From the NCBI GenBank assembly GCA_038858525.1, contig JAWCFL010000006.1, positions 41,759 to 73,758 on the forward strand: a DNA stretch of 32,000 nucleotides, written 5' to 3'. The notes under the pieces are model-generated. The model saw nothing but the letters and a program-made list of their open reading frames with translations. It made no database searches and was not told the DNA's origin. Positions within the stretch are counted from its first letter, which is position 1. The number at the start of each line of letters is the position of its first letter. The translations under genes and the position numbers were made by a program. Of the stretch, positions 113 to 13,295 are shown piece after piece. This DNA comes from Candidatus Jordarchaeales archaeon (GTDB taxonomy: Archaea; Asgardarchaeota; Jordiarchaeia; Jordiarchaeales; Freyrarchaeaceae).

Positions 113-1049
113 TCAATCTGGCTGGTGCTCGGCGGGCTCTATCGGTGTTTTCGTGGGTTTTTCACATCCCCTCTTGGTTACCAGAACAGGAATCTTGGTT
201 ACCAGAACAGGAATTTCCAGCCTTAATCCTCCCACTCCAGGCTTATTTATCTGGAGGTAAAGTTCTTCAACCATTCCTTCTCTAAACTCATAGCTCGTCC
301 AAGGCTCAAAGATAGTTATCGGCGGATACCACTCATGTCCGACTATTCCTATTCCGTGGCCGAAGACTGGTGGCGTATGTGGCGCATACTCCGTCTTATT
401 GAGCTTCTCCATGATTTTTTTCGCGACCTCGCCGACAGTTACCCCCGGCGCAACGTTGTCTATTAAAATATAGGAAAGCTCGACGAACGTTTCAATCATC
501 TTCCTCTGTTCGTTGTCTGCCTTCTCCATGACGACGTTGTATGCGAGGTCAGAATAGTAGAGTTCATATGTAGAGTGCAACTACCATTACTATTTCTCCT
601 TCTCTGATAACCTTATTTGATGGAGGGGTGCAGCCGCACCTCGAATACCCACCCCTATAACCTGACGCTACCTCGTCCCCTCCCGTTATCGGCCAATTCC
701 ACATCGAGCCGAGTTCTCTCATCACCTTCTCTCCCGCTCCAAGGACGCTGCCTCGGTTACTCCTACTCTCAGAGCCCTCAAGGCAGCCTTTATCCCCTCA
801 TCAGCTATGCTGGCAGCTTTCCTCATCCTCTCTATTTCAGCTGGCTCCTTGATCACCACAGCCTCATTCATAACCTTTGAAGCGTTAACAAAGGTGGCGT
901 CAGGAAGCTTCTCCTTCAGCATTGTGTACTCTGCTTGATTTATCACGCCTTCAATGAGACGCGGCGTCACCTCCGCTTCTATACCTATAACTGCTTTTTC
1001 AAGTCCCAGTTCCTTAATTCTGCTAGCAACCTGTTCAGGCCAATAATAA
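113..1049 (-). pseudogene. M24-family peptidase/creatinase-like pseudogene, 5'-truncated by the IS607 element
   Basis: Three consecutive frames: YYWPEQVASRIKELGLEKAVIGIE...IKEPAEIERMRKAASIADEGI, then VLGAGEKVMRELG...NKVIREGEIVMV, then LHSTYELYYSDLA...GHGIG..GHEWYP..EELYL..GGLRLE. Frameshifts at about 748 and 581, an in-frame 21-bp duplication, and the 5' part replaced by the IS right end at 1050. Confidence 0.8.
172..214. repeat. 21-bp tandem duplication (TCTTGGTTACCAGAACAGGAA x2), giving IPVLVTK-IPVLVTK
   Basis: Read directly at 172-192 and 193-213. Confidence 0.95.
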
Positions 1050-1144
1050 CCGTTGTCGGATAGTTAATTTTTTATAACTATCCGTTCCACCTCGGCTAAA
1101 GCCTCATGGGTGGCTTTCGCCGCCAACGGTAAAGGACGGCACAT
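1049..1144 (-). ncRNA. Putative omegaRNA scaffold (3' part) of element A, overlapping the tnpB 3' end
   Basis: Stem GCCGTC/GGCGGC whose loop ACCGTTG (1130-1124) is complementary to the terminal CAACGGT (1055-1049), plus a subterminal 10-bp hairpin. The position matches known TnpB omegaRNAs. The 5' limit is unknown. Confidence 0.6.
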
Positions 1145-2239
1145 GGAGAGTTTTCCAGCTATGTTCCAAGCGGCGACCAAGTGTCTATCTGCTTGGAAGC
1201 CGCACCGCCTGCATTTGAAGACGTGCCCATTCGGCTTACTAATTTCGCCACACATCGATGTCCTAGAGGTGTTTTCAGGCTTAACGGTTTCAGGCTTAAA
1301 GCCATGCTCCATCCCCTTATAGGAGATGTAGAACTGGATTCTTCTGAATGGTATGCTGTGGAGCCTCCTATTCATCACCCCACCATACCGAATCCTCTCC
1401 CTTATGTGGGTGAGCTCCTCCATTACAGGCTTAACGTTTTCCTCGGCAACCACACCAGCTACAATCTTCGCCGCCCTATGAAGTACGTCGTTCACCCTCC
1501 GCCTCTCCCTCCCAGAATACTTCGATAACAGCTCAGCTTTTGTCTCCCCCGAGGTCTTACCCTGAATGCTCCTCCTCTTCCTGAAGTACCTGCCTCTAAT
1601 GTGTTTCGCCTCACTTATATCTATCTTGATGAACCTGACCTTACCCGGCTTCACAACAGCCAAGTCTATACTACACTCGTTAACATCGATGCCCAGCACG
1701 CCTTCGGACTTTCTCTCCTCAACCGTCCTCCTAAAAGTAACATGAAGATAGTATTCGTTATTAAATTTTACAAGCCTTGAGCCTTTAACCTGCCAACCCA
1801 TGAACTTCATCGAATGCTCATGAACCCTGAACGGAATCGCGATGTGTCCTTTGTGCGTAGCCAGCCTTACGCATCCCCAACTGAACCAGAACAGGTGGGC
1901 GTCGTCCAAAAGAATGGTGTTTAGTTTCTCAATTCTTGGAGGGTTAATTTCCCCCCTCTTCCTAGAGAGCCTCCTGTAGGACTTGAATATGCTTAGAGCT
2001 TGTGTTATAGCCGTATAAATGTAATGGGATGGGTGGTTCGGATACTTCGTCCTCAGCTCCTTATAAATTGCTTCATGAAGCCTCCTACGTGAGGTCACAT
2101 TTAGATTCATAGCCCTATCTAGGCATGCTTTAACCATTTCGGAATAGCTCTTGAAGAGATCCTCGAGAACGATTGCTTGTTCATCGTTGGGCTGGAGCTT
2201 AAACTTGCAGGTCTCATTCAGCAATAAGCTGCCTGACAC
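1064..2239 (-). CDS. tnpB: TnpB, RNA-guided RuvC nuclease (IS607-associated)
   Basis: 391-aa ORF with RuvC-I VLGIDVNE, RuvC-II PVMEEL and RuvC-III ADRHLVAAWNI. The Zn ribbon is TSRTSMCG...CRRCG, with the first Cys missing. The true start may be TTG a few codons downstream. Confidence 0.9.
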   Translation of the reverse strand: MSGSLLLNETCKFKLQPNDEQAIVLEDLFKSYSEMVKACLDRAMNLNVTSRRRLHEAIYKELRTKYPNHPSHYIYTAITQALSIFKSYRRLSRKRGEINPPRIEKLNTILLDDAHLFWFSWGCVRLATHKGHIAIPFRVHEHSMKFMGWQVKGSRLVKFNNEYYLHVTFRRTVEERKSEGVLGIDVNECSIDLAVVKPGKVRFIKIDISEAKHIRGRYFRKRRSIQGKTSGETKAELLSKYSGRERRRVNDVLHRAAKIVAGVVAEENVKPVMEELTHIRERIRYGGVMNRRLHSIPFRRIQFYISYKGMEHGFKPETVKPENTSRTSMCGEISKPNGHVFKCRRCGFQADRHLVAAWNIAGKLSMCRPLPLAAKATHEALAEVERIVIKN

Positions 2240-6428: not shown

Positions 6429-7044
6429 GTGCCTGAGAAGCTCTACACTAATGGTGAGGTTGCGAGGACTTTCGGGGCTTCCTATGTCGCTGTTAAGAAG
6501 TGGGCTTATTCTGGTAAGGTTAGGCTTATTAAGACGCCTGGCGGGAAGTATAGGTTTCCCGAGAGCGAGGTAAAGCGGCTTCTTGGAGGGCGGACTCCGA
6601 AGGGAAGGGCTGTGATTTACGACAGAGTGGGTGCAGCTGACCAGTGGGAGGATTTGGAGAGACAGAAGCAAAGGCTCATTAGGTATGCCAAGAGTAGCGG
6701 CTACAGGATATAGTGGTTCTTGAGGACATAGCTTCCGGGTTAAACGAAGAATAGGAAGAGCTTGATGAGGCTTTTTGAAGTGGTTTCACAGAAACAAGTG
6801 GAGGTCGTCTTCATAACATAGGGATAGGCTTACAAGGTTCGGCTTCAAGTATTTAGAGGCATTCTTTAATTCTCATGGCTGTAGAATAGAGTGCTTAGAT
6901 GCTGAAGAAGTTAAGGAGCCACAACAAGAGCTTATAGATCTAATAGCCATAGTTACGAGCTTTGCTGGGAGAATCTATGGAGCGAGAAGCAATAAGAAGC
7001 GGAGGGTTGTGGAGGCTGTTGAGCAGACGATTAGAAACAATTAA
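6429..7044 (+). pseudogene. tnpA: IS607 TnpA serine recombinase, frameshifted
   Basis: HTH (LYTNGEVARTFGASYVAVKKWAYSG) and RAVIYDRVG..DLERQ, then in shifted frames EDIASGLNE, RDRLTRFGFKYL and LIAIVTSFAGRIYGARS; TAA at 7042-7044. Confidence 0.85.
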
Positions 7045-8415
7045 ACTAGCGGCGAGCTTCAAGCTGAATGGTTTTGTGCCAGACCGAGTTATTCCAAGCC
7101 TACAGGCAGATATTAAGCGAGCTCTTAGACTATGCCTGCGATAGGGGAGTCTCAAGCTTTAAGCGCTTAAAGTCCGAGAAGTATTGTGACTTAAGGGCGA
7201 GGTACCCGAGCTTGCCTATATCAGCAGTTTCGTGGTATATAGGTTTAAATAGAGGTTGATTACTTTGTTCTTAATGATGTCTACTCTAAAACCTGCCCAG
7301 TCTGTTCAGGAAGCATGGCTTCCTATCCGGGCAGGATATTAAACCTTCAGATGCGGGGAGAAGGGTTCCCCCAAAGAGCCCTCAATGAGTTAATCGAGGG
7401 GGAAGGGTTAAGTAGGAATGAAGGTAACAATTCACTATGTATTCCTACTTAACTCAGAACCCTTCACACTACATTTATACTGCATGCCCGATGGCATGCT
7501 TAATATACAAATCCTTCAGGAAGCTGAAAGGGAGGAATAAAGTTAGGTTAGGTCTGAAGCCGCTATTCAGGAAAGACGTTATAATGCTCGACGACCACCT
7601 ATTCAGCATGAACCTCGATAAATGGGAAGCTCCCGTTGCAACGGAAGCTGGGAGAATAGTGTTCAGAATCCTTCATGGAACATGTCATGAGAAGTTCAGG
7701 GGCATGAAGGTTGGGCAAGCATGGCTCGTCAGAAGGCGCGATGGCCATTATTTGAAGGTTGTCTTCAGCAAGACCGTAGAGGTTGCTGAACCTAATGGGA
7801 AAAAATTGGCTATAGACGTAAATGAAGCAGCGTAGCCTACGGCACGGAGAACAAGATAGGCGTCCTTAAGACTGGCGAGAAAGCCATAAGGACGGCATAC
7901 TTCCTGAAGATGCGTAGACTCCAATCCAAACTGAGGCTCAACGAGAAGCCGATACTTGCGAAGTATAGGGGTAGAGAGACGAGGAGGGTGGAGGCAATCC
8001 ACCATAAAATCGCAAACAGTCTCATCGAGGAGGCTAAGAGACAGGGCTGCACAACAAAATAGTCCTCGAAGACCTCAAGCACATCAGAAGACGCATAAGA
8101 AAATCTAAAGCTCTTAACGGCAGATTGAATAGGTGGGGCTTTCAGAAAACTCCAGCACATCATAGAATACAAGGCTAGCTTAATAGATTAAGCGTATTTT
8201 ATGTTAAAGCTGGGAGCACATCAAGTCTATGCCCAAAATGCAGGGGCAGGCTAAGCCCAAGCGGGTATAGGCTGATGAAGCGCCCAAGATGCGAACTGGA
8301 GGAGGACAGAGATATAGTAGCCGTGAAGAACCTCCTCCAGAGAATCCAGATAGATGTGCCGGCTTCACCCGTTCACGGCGAAAGCCCTCCCATGAAAGGA
8401 GGAAAGAAGAAATGA
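7031..8415 (+). pseudogene. tnpB: TnpB pseudogene interrupted by a 246-bp insertion, with further stops and frameshifts
   Basis: LRARYPSLP|SHYIYTAC rejoins when 7218-7463 is removed (compare YPNHPSHYIYTA in the intact TnpB). LAIDVNE, VLEDLKHIR, SSLCPKC, DRDIVAVKNL and DVPASPVHGESPPMKGGKKK* are recognisable in different frames. Confidence 0.85.
7215..7463 (+). mobile_element. Non-autonomous IS607-derived mini-element E1 (left end + TATA + omegaRNA-like scaffold + right end)
   Basis: CCT at 7215-7217 and 7461-7463. CC + 8 nt + CAGTTTC left end; TTTAAATA at 7244-7251; a collapsed tnpB tail reading YSKTCPVCSGSMASYPGRILNLQMRGEGFPQRAL; a 13-bp inverted repeat at 7407-7419 / 7441-7453; TCAGAAC + CC right end. 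Confidence 0.85.
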
Positions 8416-8438
8416 AAGTTAACACTGGATCAGAACGG
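8354..8438 (+). ncRNA. Putative omegaRNA scaffold (3' part) of element B
   Basis: Same motif as in element A (ATGTGCCG...CCGTT..CGGCGAAAGCC.CCCATGA). Internal CCGTTC (8369-8374) is complementary to the terminal GAACGG (8433-8438). Confidence 0.55.
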
Positions 8439-8595
8439 CAGGTGAGCAAGAGAAGAAGAATCTATCACCTCTTTGTCGCAGCGAAAACATGCAACTTAAT
8501 TGGAACAGCGTTTTTAGACAGGAACATTTGCTCTCACGATACATCCTTTTTAGTTACATGTCAGCCACATCTGTCCCTAGGAACTCACTTTCCCT

Positions 8596-9654
8596 CTAAT
8601 ATATTTCTTCTTCACCTTTTTTTCCCTCCCCGGCCATTACCTTGACCTTCTCTTCCTTGACCTTCTCTTCCTTGACCTTCTCTTCCTTGACCTTCTCTTC
8701 CTTGACCTTCTCTTCCTTGACCTTCTCTTCCTTGACCTTCTCTTCCTTCCCGATTTTCTTTCTCAGCTTCTCATCCAGTATTTTTAGTACCTCTATGGCA
8801 TACAGGCTTCTGCCGCAGTAAGGGCACTCGATGACGTTGCCGCTTTCAGGAAGCTTTAGTTTTCCTCCACAATGCGGGCATGCAATCTCCTCAATTATTA
8901 ATCCTCTGGTTTTTAGCAGCAAGCGTATATGTTCGTAGCTCTCTTTTTCCTCAAAAAACACGCCGATTTCTGAAGCAAGCTGATCAAGACGCTCATCGAA
9001 ATCTTTCCTGAGTAACTCCACTTTCTCACCCTGAGCTTTCACTATGTTCGGCCACTCCGCTTTAAGCTTCCTGTATTTATATTCAACATTGTCTAAATTC
9101 GAACGCAGTTCGTCATTAAGCTTATCTACGGCCTTTTTTATCTCTCTTCCTTCCTTCTTCAACATTTTTATTTCCTTACGAGCTGTGGGACTTATCAGTG
9201 GAGACAACACATAAAGAATGTGGGCACCGTATAACGCTAACCCAAATAACAGACCAGGCAATCCATAGCTATAAATAAGTATAACAGTAACAAGGAAAAT
9301 TGAGGTATGCAAGCAGCACACAAAGAGCTTTCTAAACCTATCCTTTGCTTGATTCACGTACATCATTAACGCGTCTTCTAACTCGTGAAGCTTATAAGTT
9401 AAAGCCTCTATTTCCGGCGTATACTTATTTCGTAATTCGTCGCATTCTTTTACTTTCGCGTAATCTAAGCCTCGCACCATTAACTCATACTTTCTGCTTT
9501 CATCATTAAGGACACGTAAATCCTCGGCCAGCTTCCTTAACTTGCCTCTTAGCTCAGGCGCAAGCTCCGTGTACTCGAAACCGTACCCCAACTTCGACTC
9601 AAGCATCTTTTTTATTTTTCTCTCGTTCTCCCTAACCCGCTCATCATAATACAC
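8596..9654 (-). CDS. Membrane protein with coiled coils, two TM helices, a C-terminal Zn ribbon and an (EEKVK)7 tail
   Basis: 352-aa ORF; hydrophobic LHTSIFLVTVILIYSYGLPGLLFGLALYGAHILYVL; CPHCGG...CPYCG. Confidence 0.8.
   Translation of the reverse strand: MYYDERVRENERKIKKMLESKLGYGFEYTELAPELRGKLRKLAEDLRVLNDESRKYELMVRGLDYAKVKECDELRNKYTPEIEALTYKLHELEDALMMYVNQAKDRFRKLFVCCLHTSIFLVTVILIYSYGLPGLLFGLALYGAHILYVLSPLISPTARKEIKMLKKEGREIKKAVDKLNDELRSNLDNVEYKYRKLKAEWPNIVKAQGEKVELLRKDFDERLDQLASEIGVFFEEKESYEHIRLLLKTRGLIIEEIACPHCGGKLKLPESGNVIECPYCGRSLYAIEVLKILDEKLRKKIGKEEKVKEEKVKEEKVKEEKVKEEKVKEEKVKEEKVKVMAGEGKKGEEEIY
8641..8745. repeat. Perfect 15-bp tandem repeat x7 (CTTGACCTTCTCTTC), coding EEKVK on the minus strand
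   Basis: Seven identical contiguous units with no spacers. Confidence 0.97.
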
Positions 9655-10173
9655 GCTCGATATTCGTCTCCCCCCATTTCAGTTAGCCAACTATTGTAAA
9701 TTCCCTACCATCCTTCATAAACTTTTATGTTTTCATTTTTAAAAAGATTTTCTTTAATGTTTACCAGTGATATCGCATACATCATCACCTTTAATAGCCT
9801 CCTTCTTACCCCGACGCCTCTAAGCGTCAATAGCTTCCATAACAACAATCACCGTTTTCTCTGTGTAGCTCACATAGAAGCTAAAAGGGGACACGTTTTC
9901 ATACAAGAGACATTTTCACCGTCTCAGCTACCTCGTGAACACCACAACATACATGTGCAGACTAAAAGGGAAAGTAACGTTCAAGTAGGATGAAGCCCAG
10001 GGAACACGTAACTGCTACTAACACGGAAGGAGAACCTTTAATGTACCCGCCTAGAATCTTTTTAATAACCAAAAGGATGCCGCCAATTACCGTAGCGAAC
10101 GGTAATTAAGAGAAATATTAAAAAGCAGAAAAAAATTAAAATAGTAACTGATAAAAGGATTTCTCTCTATTTT

Positions 10174-11757
10174 GTGGAGGAGAACATGAAGAGAGCGGCA
10201 TGGAGAACTTACATGGCAGTGTTGCTAGTAGGAGTGCTGGCGCTCACATTGGTAGCAATGCAAATATCAACGCCAGCACAAGCACAAACACAACGAACGA
10301 TACAAAAGGCTCAAATGACATGGGCAAAAACGTATGGAGGAACGTATGGCGACTCCGCTTTTCGTGTGGCTGTTGATGGTCAGGGGAACATCATAGTGGT
10401 AGGCGAAACATGGTCCTTTGGTGCTGGTGGTAGTGACGTTTGGGTCTTGAAGCTTGACCCTAACGGGGACCCAACATGGCAGAAGGCGTATGGAGGAACG
10501 TATGGCGACTCCGCTTTTCGTGTGGCTGTTGATGGTCAGGGGAACATCATAGTGGTAGGCGAAACATGGTCCTTTGGTGCTGGTGGTAGTGACGTTTGGG
10601 TCTTGAAGCTGAACGCCTCAGGTAACGTCATCTGGCAGAAAGGATACGGAGGAGAGAGCAAAGATTACGCTTGGGGTGTTGCTGTTGATTCTCAGGGAAA
10701 TATAATAGTAGCGGGAGGAACTGAATCCTTTGGTGCTGGTGGTAGTGACGTTTGGGTCTTGAAGCTGGACCCTAACGGGGAACCAACATGGCAGAAGACA
10801 TATGGGGGAGCGAGCAACGAGTGTGCTCTTGATGTTGCCTTTGATGTTCAAGGAAACATTATAGTGTCAGGGTACACTTACTCCTTTGGTGCTGGTGGCA
10901 GTGACGTTTGGGTCTTGAAGCTGGACCCTAACGGGGAACCAACATGGCAGAAGACGTATGGAGGAATAAACGACGACTATGCTTCTGGCGTTACTGTTGA
11001 TGCTCAGGGGAGCATAATAGTAGCGGGAGGCACAAACTCCTCTAGAGCTGGGGGATGGAACGTTTGGGTTTTGAAGCTTAACAGCTCAGGAGACACCATA
11101 TGGCAGAAAACGTATGGGGAAGCGAAGACTGACGTTGCCTATGATGTTACTGTCAACGCCCAAGGAAACATTATAGTGTCAGGGTACACTTACTCCTTTG
11201 GTGCTGGTGGCAGTGACGTTTGGGTCTTGAAGCTGGACCCTAACGGGGAACCAACATGGCAGAAGACGTACGGAGGAACTTATGAGGACTGTGCTATGGG
11301 AGTTGCCGCCGATAATGAAGGTATAATTGTGGCTGGGTTTACGTCATCCTTTGGTGCTGGGCTTCGAGACCTCTGGGTTTTGCGTATAAGTTCGAATGGT
11401 GAAATTTACAATTCAATATCCGAATTCACCATAAAAAATACTAGCGTGGCGCCTACAACAACAGCGGCTTCCCCCTCACCTACTAACGCTGCAATTTTAT
11501 CGACGAACGCGAACTTGAGCGATACGCAAGCAATAATAACAAATACCAACGCGGCAATAAACACGCAGGCACCGCCTTCCCCATCCTTTTCACCACCTAT
11601 TGAGGAGCAGTTTTTGCTTCTGCTTCTAGTCCTCGGGTTGTATGACTCGGTGGAGAATGCATCTCGAAGTAGTGTGGTTTCCATTGGCTTTTTCATAATT
11701 CTTTTTGGCGACATCAGTTTGTACGTTTTTCTTTATCGAAGGTGGAGACTTGCGTGA
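10174..11757 (+). CDS. Secreted, probably membrane-anchored 7-bladed beta-propeller repeat protein
   Basis: Signal peptide (start probably ATG 10186); seven 52-aa repeats W-x-K-x-YGG...V-x-VD-x-QGNIIV-x-G...FGAGGSDVWVLKL; Ser/Thr-rich stalk; hydrophobic C-terminus ending RRWRLA. Confidence 0.85.
   Translation: MEENMKRAAWRTYMAVLLVGVLALTLVAMQISTPAQAQTQRTIQKAQMTWAKTYGGTYGDSAFRVAVDGQGNIIVVGETWSFGAGGSDVWVLKLDPNGDPTWQKAYGGTYGDSAFRVAVDGQGNIIVVGETWSFGAGGSDVWVLKLNASGNVIWQKGYGGESKDYAWGVAVDSQGNIIVAGGTESFGAGGSDVWVLKLDPNGEPTWQKTYGGASNECALDVAFDVQGNIIVSGYTYSFGAGGSDVWVLKLDPNGEPTWQKTYGGINDDYASGVTVDAQGSIIVAGGTNSSRAGGWNVWVLKLNSSGDTIWQKTYGEAKTDVAYDVTVNAQGNIIVSGYTYSFGAGGSDVWVLKLDPNGEPTWQKTYGGTYEDCAMGVAADNEGIIVAGFTSSFGAGLRDLWVLRISSNGEIYNSISEFTIKNTSVAPTTTAASPSPTNAAILSTNANLSDTQAIITNTNAAINTQAPPSPSFSPPIEEQFLLLLLVLGLYDSVENASRSSVVSIGFFIILFGDISLYVFLYRRWRLA
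10331..11400 (+). repeat. Intragenic 156-bp repeats x7
   Basis: Period is 156 bp. 10331-10454 equals 10487-10610 (124 bp identical) and 10849-10958 equals 11161-11270 (110 bp identical). Confidence 0.9.
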
Positions 11758-11889
11758 AGCTCCTGACGGAAGCCCCGTCCTCTCCTGGCGCAGTTACTAT
11801 TATAAGTAGCAACGTGCGAAAATGCATTTGCAATAGTAATTAATCTATTCATTTTTAATCTAAGCTTCAATCTGAGTAGTAATTAATTA

Positions 11890-12480
11890 AATCATAGAGC
11901 TCTTAACGGTAAATTGGCATGGTTACTCGGTGGTTTGATGGAGTTTTCCGCTATTAAAGATGAAGGTCTTGAACGTCTTGTGCGATTAAAAGCTAAATAG
12001 TTGCTCGGCAGTTTCCAGATATATAACTTATTGAGGTTGAAGCCGCCTAAAATTTGCCTAATATGTGGCGAGACAAATGAGCTGAATGGGCGCGTCTTAA
12101 GTGTATGTGAGACTTAAGCGGTAGGATTCTGAACTGCGTAGTCTTTGGTAGACTTGTGTAGCTCTTGGTTTTCATCGAGCCCGTTCTGGGCTCACATCGC
12201 TCTCTAACCCTGTCGAGTCGAACCCGCCCCATACATCCACGCCAAGCCCTTTCGAGCCTGAGGTCATCTGTATGGGGAAAGTCCCCCCATCTGAAGGTGG
12301 CATCATCCGTAGGAAGCCATGCTTCCAGAGCAGAGCCCGGCTCCGGAAAGGTTAATGAGCAAGTCTATTTAAATCTATCTTGAAACTGTTTTTTGAAGGC
12401 GCTTCGCCGCCGTTTTTGGCATTGTAAATTTCCGGCGTGCCGCCCTTATCGTTGGCGGTGAAAACCCCTCGGGAGCTTTA
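11890..12480 (+). pseudogene. tnpB: Heavily decayed tnpB 3' remnant interrupted by mini-element E2
   Basis: RALNGKL (compare KALNGRL in element B) and ICLICGETNELNGRV (compare MCGEISKPNGHV in the intact TnpB). After the insert comes the scaffold motif GTGCCGCCCTTATCGTTGGCGGTGAAAACC (from 12437). The element ends could not be resolved. Confidence 0.65.
12123..12399 (-). mobile_element. Non-autonomous IS607-derived mini-element E2
   Basis: Minus-strand CCT at both junctions (+ strand AGG at 12397-12399 and 12123-12125). CC + 9 nt + CAGTTTC left end; TTTAAATA at 12373-12366; GGAAGCATGGCTTCCTA and ACCTTCAGATG shared with E1; TCAGAAT + CC right end. Confidence 0.8.
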
Positions 12481-12550
12481 ATCGTGGAAGATGAGAAAGG
12501 TAGAATCTGTTGACCCCACGAAGGTGGAATCATCGTTGAGGAGATAGTGA

Positions 12551-13069
12551 TTAATCTTTTATTTCGTCGTTTGTTGTTTCCCAGAGCCACTCTAGAGGGT
12601 TTTCCGTTTCTACAAATTTGAATTGTTTAAAGTCCTTTATGTTTTCTGTCCATATGAATTCCACTTTTCCTCTTGCTGTGCAAGCTAGTAGTGCGTCGAA
12701 GAAGTCTCCGCCTCTTAGTCCGATTCTTTCAGCCTCAAGCACCGCTTCCCTGTAATCTTCGATTGTCGGCTGCAGTTTCCGTATTGCAGTTGACTTAAGG
12801 TAGGCTGTGCATATTTCGGCTGCGCGGCTTGGGCTTAGAGGGTTCTGAACCTTCCTGCTCGTGATGACCGAGTAGAGCTCGGCTATGTTTTGGAGGCTGA
12901 CGTATGCCTCCAGGAATCCTAGGACTGCAGCCTTGATTATCACTGCCGCGCCTCTGTTACTGGGACTTAACTCGTCACTGGCATAGCAAAGGATCATTGT
13001 GTCGAGTAAAACGCGTTTCCCGTAGTGCTCGGTTTCAGTTATATCCACTCCGTTAACGAGTATCCTCAT
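12551..13069 (-). CDS. vapC: PIN-domain (VapC-like) ribonuclease toxin
   Basis: VLLDTMILCYA, IAELYSVIT, FFDALLACTA and IWTENIKDF carry the PIN acidic residues; the gene overlaps the upstream AbrB-type gene. Confidence 0.85.
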   Translation of the reverse strand: MRILVNGVDITETEHYGKRVLLDTMILCYASDELSPSNRGAAVIIKAAVLGFLEAYVSLQNIAELYSVITSRKVQNPLSPSRAAEICTAYLKSTAIRKLQPTIEDYREAVLEAERIGLRGGDFFDALLACTARGKVEFIWTENIKDFKQFKFVETENPLEWLWETTNDEIKD

Positions 13070-13295
13070 ATATTTCCCTTCTGCTGAGGTGTGGGACGCC
13101 GATTTTCGCGGGCTTTTCTAGGATTTCGAGGAGCTTCTCGTCCGCGGTTTTCCTCTTGAGTTTCGCCTCGAAGCTCCTACTGCTTGTCAGCCTGATTTCG
13201 AGCTTGTCTCCGTCTTCAAGTCCAAGGGCCTCCCTCACCTCTACGGGAATGTAAAGCTTGCCCTTATGGTATGTTCCGACTCCCAAGCTGGACAC
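13053..13295 (-). CDS. vapB: AbrB/MazE/SpoVT-type antitoxin (VapB-like)
   Basis: KGKLYIPVEVREALGLEDGDKLEI is the swapped-hairpin signature; 80 aa, directly upstream of the PIN gene. Confidence 0.85.
   Translation of the reverse strand: MSSLGVGTYHKGKLYIPVEVREALGLEDGDKLEIRLTSSRSFEAKLKRKTADEKLLEILEKPAKIGVPHLSRREIYEDTR

Follow-up and report, generated by a model that had tools for sequence, protein, structure and literature searches.

A probable gene-less derivative of an archaeal IS607-type insertion sequence within a decayed tnpB gene of a Jordarchaeales genome

The locus and its gene-less element

The window analyzed here is a stretch of 32,000 nucleotides (nt) from the Candidatus Jordarchaeales archaeon assembly GCA_038858525.1 (contig JAWCFL010000006.1, positions 41,759 to 73,758, forward strand), and coordinates given without a contig refer to it. 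A protein-less element of approximately 275 bases, here termed E2 (12124-12399, minus), is flanked by a beta-propeller gene (10174-11757) on one side and a VapC/AbrB-type pair (12551-13295, minus strand) on the other. E2 is very probably a non-autonomous internal-deletion derivative of an archaeal IS607-type insertion sequence (IS), which combines a serine-recombinase tnpA with the RNA-guided nuclease gene tnpB. Two deletions have, in all likelihood, removed tnpA and nearly all of tnpB. There is good reason to think that four components were kept: a left end comprising the promoter box of tnpA and a decayed start codon, a piece of the tnpB Zn finger that forms a hairpin, the omegaRNA scaffold, and the right end.

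On the minus strand, the locus runs from host GCG through CC, TTCAAAAAACAGTTTCAAGATAGA, TTTAAATA, a 17-mer, an 11-mer and approximately 170 further bases to ...CAGAATCC (12124), followed by host TACCGC. At the left junction, the core CC (12398-12399) and the host G before it (12400) make up GCC, which is a candidate for the target or for a motif resembling a transposon-adjacent motif (TAM). The left end (12341-12397) comprises the conserved CAGTTTCAAGATAGA, a TATA box, TTTAAATA (12373-12366), with a putative promoter role, and the decayed tnpA start (12346-12341), where CCGGAG replaces ATGGAG; it breaks off at the first deletion after this codon and one more. There follow 29 nt of tnpB Zn-finger coding sequence (12307-12335; ..LCSGSMASYG), within which the 17-mer forms the hairpin GGAAGC-ATG-GCTTCC (GGAAGCATGGCTTCCTA, 12326-12310), then an 8-nt filler at the second deletion junction (ATGATGCC, 12299-12306) and the 11-mer ACCTTCAGATG (12298-12288). 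The omegaRNA scaffold (12124-12305) runs to the right end ...CAGAATCC, where the core CC recurs (12125-12124). Assigned by the position rule for TnpB guides, the predicted guide TACCGCTTAAGTCTCACATA comprises the first 20 nt past the right end (12104-12123, minus) and is antisense to the host tnpB remnant. Open reading frames (ORFs) overlapping E2 reach only 61-72 amino acids (aa) and show no convincing Pfam family, the residual tnpB codons are broken by stops, and no tRNAs were detected.

A second element, E1 (7217-7462, plus), likewise comprises a left end with a TATA box, a Zn-finger hairpin, an omegaRNA and a right end, and shares with E2 the 17-mer (7309-7325) and the 11-mer (7343-7353). 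These blocks, the TATA box, both end motifs and the GCC/CC junctions all lie where the initial annotation of this DNA had placed them. Three tnpB lineages are distinguished below: family A, to which the host gene of E2 belongs; family B, the lineage carrying the blocks shared by E1 and E2 (copies on contigs C24, C17 and C53); and B-prime, the type of the E2 left end and omegaRNA. The TnpB proteins of B and B-prime are 38% identical.

Host remnant and E2-free allele

To the left of E2, a decayed family-A tnpB is recognizable from the Zn-finger CxxC to the ADR codons (12061-12123, plus). To the right, 12400-12525 (plus) holds the family-A tnpB tail (..FAAV..) with its own decayed omegaRNA and right end ...CACGAAGGT. 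When E2 is removed, the joined flanks align by blastn across the junction to the intact family-A element at 1064-2239 (minus), with 120/184 identities (65%, E=2e-12). The alignment spans the CxxC codons and the ADRH(F/L)VAA codons and continues into the omegaRNA region, and weak blastx matches of the flanks fall on the same TnpB residues. E2 sits at the RuvC-III codons in opposite orientation to its host, and its placement within a tnpB remnant, proposed from the first reading of the sequence, is borne out by this alignment. Family A has about a dozen copies in the genome, with the ADRHFVAA motif and the right end ...CGACAACGGT.

This DNA, or part of it, is contained in 15 listed sequencing runs (X1-X15; hot-spring metagenomes or a coded organism, eight studies), and no RNA run is listed for it. 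A contig from run X11 carries E2 with both flanks and a single difference, and E2 is stable across samples from 2017-2024. On a 20.4-kb contig from run X14, position 12120 is joined to 12433 through 39 letters that align to the host remnant; E2 is therefore absent there, which shows it to be a discrete, true insertion, and the outer bounds of the insertion fall within 12121-12432.

The neighboring pair comprises a VapC-like PIN toxin of 172 aa with an AbrB/MazE-type antitoxin of 80 aa upstream; E2 and its host remnant lie just past the 3' end of this pair.

Right end and omegaRNA

The last 50 nt of E2 match both an orphan copy on contig C42 and a complete 417-aa tnpB in a genome of the same genus (L040). 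Searching with the L040 TnpB protein retrieved 37 loci, from metagenome-assembled genomes (MAGs) labelled Methanomethylicota, Nitrososphaeria/Caldarchaeales, Bathyarchaeia, Methanodesulfokora, Nezhaarchaeota and Jordarchaeia. In 29 homologues, conservation beyond tnpB ends sharply after ...GAACC(C), and the next base varies freely. The aligned B-prime 3' ends share a common fold, including a long-range helix GGTTC/GAACC that uses the right-end terminus, and compensatory changes occur at 15/27 predicted pairs. In the B set, 95.8% of cells pair, compared to 34-61% with the partners slid.

A covariance model, R1, was built from 27 tnpB-attached 3' ends from other genomes, with E1 and E2 excluded. 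It matches E2 at 12124-12305 (minus) over model positions 1-190 with 79 bits (E=1.1e-21). Across this genome R1 recovers six sites, comprising E1, E2, three full-length right ends and one orphan: the C42 orphan scores highest (118 bits), then E2, C17 and C53 (37 bits each), E1 (21.7 bits) and C24 (15.9 bits). E2 retains most omegaRNA pairs; its long-range helix is preserved as GGTTC/GAAUC via a G-U pair, and one internal hairpin is shortened with its pairing intact (GAGCCC/GGGCTC). From its predicted start to the right end, the E2 RNA folds with z=-3.4. Together with the E2-free allele, the R1 match upholds the earlier description of E2 as a discrete gene-less mini-element of the same superfamily as E1.

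The C42 orphan (G000:C42:7667-7813, minus) is a B-prime omegaRNA and right end with only the last ~37 tnpB codons upstream and no recognizable left end, adjoining a gene for a signal-peptide protein. It was considered as a third mini-element and dropped, as its upstream DNA scores 39 against the 5' part of E2, with a shuffle maximum of 46. Right ends differ between lineages, reading ...ACGGT (GG core) in family A (window 1049-1130) and ...AACCC (CC core) in B and B-prime (window 12124-12225). In the B and B-prime sets alike, an internal GGGTT(C) segment is the pairing partner of the terminal bases.

Left end and junctions

The left end of E2 equals that of locus L066 over CAGTTTCAAGATAGA...TTTAAATAGAC, except for a 3-nt gap. 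The motif CAGTTTC(A/G)..(A/G)TAGA...TTTAAATAG stands upstream of tnpA in approximately 21 related loci, and in these relatives ATGGAG... follows ~35 nt past the motif, opening a 200-aa serine recombinase with a MerR-HTH (MERLYTLKEA...). Full-length relatives with an E2-type left end upstream of tnpA occur in Methanomethylicota, Nitrososphaeria, Bathyarchaeia, Korarchaeota-like and Jordarchaeia MAGs. GCC is found 7-9 nt upstream of CAGTTTC in approximately 21 left ends from other genomes and in 4/4 family-B left ends here, and the bases ahead of it are unrelated between loci.

The G of the GCC at E2 aligns to a family-A host base. The same 2-bp core CC stands at both junctions (12399-12398 and 12125-12124), and the alignment with the host is consistent with an empty site that had just one CC; in E1, keeping one CC restores the reading frame of the host. 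The ends of E2 (left CAGTTTC..., right ...CAGAATCC) carry no terminal inverted repeats, and nothing is duplicated beyond the exchange core. With neither repeats nor duplication, and with only one copy, E2 is not a miniature inverted-repeat transposable element (MITE) in the strict sense; both absences are as expected for IS607-type elements, which insert at a fixed 2-bp core without target duplication (PMC6188088). The E2 and E1 sequences thus fit IS607 exchange, with a fixed core CC, no duplication and a preferred G before the core. Of the GCC(T) junction first proposed, the G|CC at the left and the ...CC| at the right recur; the T of CCT does not, as the position following the right end varies freely in the 29 homologues.

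Known IS607-family elements share this arrangement. Both IS607 of Helicobacter pylori (PMC6188088) and the Clostridium botulinum IStron (10.1101/2023.11.20.567912) recombine at a fixed 2-bp core that is found at either junction as well as in the target, and they produce no duplication. In the IStron, the TnpB TAM equals the TnpA target (TGGG), a near-copy (TCGG) stands at the right end, and the omegaRNA stops there (10.1101/2023.11.20.567912). The motif adjoining the left end likewise recurs in altered form at the right end here, where YGCC (left) and AACC (right) are the counterparts of TGGG and TCGG, with GCC as the putative TAM. In contrast to these elements, E2 has a CC rather than a GG core on its top strand, no group I intron, and neither gene.

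Shared blocks in full-length elements

The longest word common to E1 and E2 is 17 nt, compared to a maximum of 12 in 500 shuffles. When the whole assembly (63 contigs, 2.09 Mb) was searched with both elements, the shared blocks were found inside full-length tnpB genes on C24 (25395-26770, minus, with the tnpB frameshifted) and C17 (contig start), and on C53, where the last 126 nt of a copy lie at the contig end. Matching left ends are present on C14 and C25. Within tnpB, the 17-mer contributes codons to the first half of the Zn finger (CPLCSGSMASYGG), and the 11-mer encodes NLQM, directly after the RuvC-III DRD motif, at the start of the omegaRNA region. The Zn-finger block of E2 is identical to the full-length family-B copy on C24 at 27/29 positions (93%).

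Full-length family-B elements are approximately 1.4 kb long, and 1164-1179 nt separate their left end from the hairpin. Of metagenomic family-B tnpB genes, 32 contain the 17-mer, and in all of them it precedes CCTTCAGATG by 64-70 nt; this is the full-length distance, which accommodates the second CxxC and the RuvC-III DRD, and it is reduced to 8 nt in E2 and ~18 in E1. None of the 32 copies has the short spacing or a left end nearby.

The hairpin is more than coding sequence. Its outer stem occurs in two versions within family B, CCCAG/CTGGG and CCCCC/GGGGG; the changes are compensatory at 2 pairs and alter the encoded residues (V/L, L/G; PV..LG vs PL..GG; alignment A3 columns 11-18/45-52; E1 window 7294-7330). 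Only the outer stem is informative here, the sequences having been picked by the inner 17-mer. Judged from the alignment, such compensatory changes imply selection on nucleic-acid structure within the coding region. In B-prime elements, another hairpin occupies this position.

All family-B copies seen have a "tnpA" reduced to a MerR-type HTH (~55-60 aa), with tnpB immediately after it (G000:C14:47829-48278; C24:25395-26770, minus; L131, minus, 322-1710). The serine-recombinase catalytic domain is missing, and the whole of family B is therefore non-autonomous. Many relatives have also lost tnpA, and many B-prime loci have only 90-370 nt between left end and tnpB.

History and activity of E2

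The features of E2 can be arranged into a mechanism. E2, or its full-length parent, would have entered a family-A tnpB at a 5'-G|CC-3' site within its 3' end, which was by then dead, and serine-recombinase exchange at the CC core would have left CC at both junctions without duplication. Transcription would be driven from the retained archaeal TATA box and begin close to the former tnpA start, yielding a transcript of 5' hairpin, omegaRNA scaffold and a guide copied from the adjacent DNA. With this RNA, a cognate TnpB supplied in trans could cut element-free alleles, restoring the element, and a cognate TnpA in trans could mobilize it. IS607-type tnpA genes are numerous in the genome, with at least one (C12) apparently intact, and copies of family-B tnpB are present as well; this 92.7%-complete assembly contains no B-prime tnpB. 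E2 is therefore most likely an inactive, single-copy relic in this genome. The guide 16-mer has no other match with ≤2 mismatches beside GCC in this genome.

Several observations weigh against this account. The first of these are departures from consensus: its left terminus is TTCAAAAAA where relatives have GTAGTCAG, the tnpA ATG is lost, and its right end reads GAATCC, with a C>T change. E2 is also a mosaic, in which a family-B Zn-finger block stands between a B-prime left end and a B-prime omegaRNA; the sequence of this block is absent from all 27 B-prime homologues. A B-type block in an otherwise B-prime element suggests that the parent is unsampled, or that E2 is a recombinant that arose by template switching with a resident B copy. 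Moreover, the X14 allele has ATC where this genome has GCC, and the 40 nt beside the junction are only ~70% identical. On this sequence evidence, the X14 allele is neither a simple pre-insertion nor a simple post-excision copy; it has diverged at the site, and the exact pre-insertion sequence is not visible in it. The data are compatible both with an E2 that transposed as a mini-element and with one that shrank in place.

The differences of the X14 allele cluster near E2, with 20 substitutions plus indels in 11865-12075 and ~30% difference in 12400-12432, compared to none in 11758-11864 and 3 in 12433-13100 (668 nt). Such clustering could reflect a recombination or introgression tract that carried E2, or fast local decay.

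It is quite possible, if somewhat short of probable, that the original insertion was a full-length element and that two deletions then pared it down on site, for instance through microhomology or template switching with a resident B copy, leaving a functionless fossil that was never mobile as a mini-element. The single copy, the lack of a cognate tnpB, the off-consensus termini and lost ATG would all be accounted for, and template switching would place a B-type patch just where one is found, exactly between the two junctions. Deletion derivatives are also common, given the many relatives without tnpA and the HTH-only tnpA of family B. Against this scenario, the omegaRNA pairs and the TATA box are well preserved, and the surviving parts are just those that a guide cassette would require, in E1 as in E2. 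The scenario differs from the preferred account only in the history and activity of E2; its identity as an IS607-type derivative is common to both.

E1 and E2 as probably separate derivatives

The initial annotation had read E1 and E2 as an old, separately propagating MITE-like family with a bias towards tnpB targets. We consider it very improbable that they are diverged members of one such self-propagating family. The resemblance that prompted this reading is considerable. E1 and E2 share the same list of parts in the same four-part layout, the G|CC junction and a location inside a dead tnpB, and the loss of nearly the same part of tnpB, as first noticed, is confirmed by four deletion endpoints that agree within ~0-15 nt. 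The first deletion reaches from 2-3 codons into tnpA to within ~15 nt of the first Zn-finger Cys codon, and the second takes the second CxxC and the RuvC-III codons, ending 0-8 nt from CCTTCAGATG in both.

Their sequences nevertheless point to different parents. E1 runs from the left end through ATGATGTCT to a first deletion with microhomology TCT, then through a 58-nt hairpin block and a second deletion of 51 nt to a 124-nt omegaRNA. It aligns throughout with the full-length B copies in alignment A3, and relative to C24 it is 86% identical over the 58-nt hairpin block and 94% over the 124-nt omegaRNA. E2 is of B-prime type in its left end and omegaRNA; R1 gives it 79 bits and E1 only 21.7, and the TnpBs of the two lineages are 38% identical. 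In blocks compared by eye, E1 and E2 have no derived base in common, and E1 agrees with full-length B wherever it differs from E2. When gaps were made cheap, aligning E1 and E2 globally to full-length copies produced small, noisy blocks, and the comparison uses long blocks only. Each first junction also has a microhomology of its own, which in E2 is possibly CTCT(A/G)C, between the tnpA MERLY codons and the tnpB CPLC codons. The two insertions differ as well in their setting: E1 has the same orientation as its host gene and lies at about residue 80, and E2 is opposite to its host at the RuvC-III codons. The E1 host represents a tnpB family apart from A and B.

Nor were further family members found. 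The covariance-model scan with R1 yielded the six sites described above, with no mini-element beyond E1 and E2, and 0/32 metagenomic family-B copies have the short spacing or a nearby left end. A DNA search of 40 relatives detected no other copy of E2, and the 26-mer across its second deletion junction has 0 matches in the metagenome collection. Multi-copy mini-elements do exist in a sister genome, G001, where the omegaRNA model has 52 matches. In G001, a mini-element of 138-162 nt is present in at least five copies (L117, L121, L122, L124, L127), which retain the left end, ~10 tnpA codons and the last ~85 nt of the omegaRNA; a sixth (L114, 211 nt) has a similar architecture and keeps ~120 nt of omegaRNA. 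By their sequences, these represent a genuinely propagating multi-copy family, with a different, single deletion unlike those of E1 and E2.

The target bias fares no better. Of six other junction flanks of B and B-prime copies here, full-length or orphan, 0/6 show TnpB or TnpA similarity, and the same holds for the flanks of the six G001 mini-elements (0/6; ≤600 nt left, 150 nt right), leaving only E1 and E2 in tnpB. Insertions within dead insertion sequences are neutral and tend to persist. Such neutrality, with n=2, is enough to explain the location of E1 and E2. Another nested IS pair occurs in a sister genome, where a decayed B-prime tnpB tail and omegaRNA (78 bits; L128, G003:C55:565-1700) lie directly after the right end of an element of the E1-host family.

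With the shared blocks being residues of full-length elements and no other mini-element present here, the very outcome that the initial annotation had named as fatal to the family, E1 (family B) and E2 most likely have separate origins, in which the blocks reflect conserved tnpB and omegaRNA sequence rather than common descent as mini-elements. The contrary extreme, that there is no element and the resemblances are chance or low-complexity matches in an intergenic region, is already refuted and as good as impossible: Rfam has no match at gathering thresholds in the whole window, nor at E<=5 in 6800-12900, and the exact blocks in common with E1 are short, but the covariance-model match (E ~1e-21), a left end identical to that of relatives, the E2-free allele, and a 17-mer where 500 shuffles reach 12 at most leave it no room.

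E1 and E2 have thus converged on nearly the same four-part architecture, and this convergence needs explanation. TnpA-mediated internal deletion at pseudo-sites was considered as the cause of the similar endpoints and rejected, the E1 junction having no correctly oriented CC/GG core. Selection for a small working RNA cassette could plausibly retain the scaffold and right end together with the 5' hairpin and the promoter as far as the transcription start, which would coincide with the start codon, these archaeal genes being poor in leaders. In a bolder form, which we regard as rather unlikely, B (E1) and B-prime-like (E2) elements were trimmed independently to the same minimal unit, with the coding-region hairpin as a required 5' guide-RNA module for processing or stability, and the mini-elements would be selected, self-promoted mobile guide-RNA genes that parasitize the TnpB and TnpA of full-length elements.

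Relation to known gene-less elements

Gene-less IS605-type elements often encode omegaRNAs that are used in trans (Meers et al. 2023; 10.1101/2023.03.14.532601). Like the PATE-like elements described there, E2 has no protein gene, keeps both ends, carries an omegaRNA for a TnpB located elsewhere, and would depend on a transposase in trans. PATE-like elements are associated with Y1-transposases (IS605) and have subterminal DNA palindromes, whereas E2 is of the serine-recombinase (IS607) type without palindromic ends. E2 does not qualify as a PATE, as the partner transposase of its relatives is a serine recombinase and its own hairpins are internal, RNA-type helices rather than subterminal palindromes. 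E2 is also archaeal, unlike PATE-like elements, with an archaeal TATA box derived from the tnpA promoter.

Among archaea, the transposase of ISC1733 belongs to an element of the IS605/IS607 group. This transposase mobilizes SMN1, a non-autonomous element of Sulfolobus islandicus (PMC3718332). By description, SMN1 and E2 are alike in being archaeal, ORF-less, approximately 300 bp long and dependent on the transposase of a tnpA/tnpB-type IS; SMN1 is multi-copy and its movement was observed, whereas E2 is single-copy and its movement is deduced from the empty allele only.

Gene-less omegaRNA carriers and non-autonomous archaeal derivatives are thus already described, and E2 leaves the current picture unchanged. 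Its value lies in being a clean, well-bounded case of an archaeal IS607-type element cut down to promoter and guide RNA, with a natural empty-site allele. Moreover, it provides GCC (core CC) as a candidate for the target or a TAM-like motif of a thermophilic TnpB clade with a wide distribution, and a testable hint that the hairpin within the Zn-finger codons may belong to the functional RNA.

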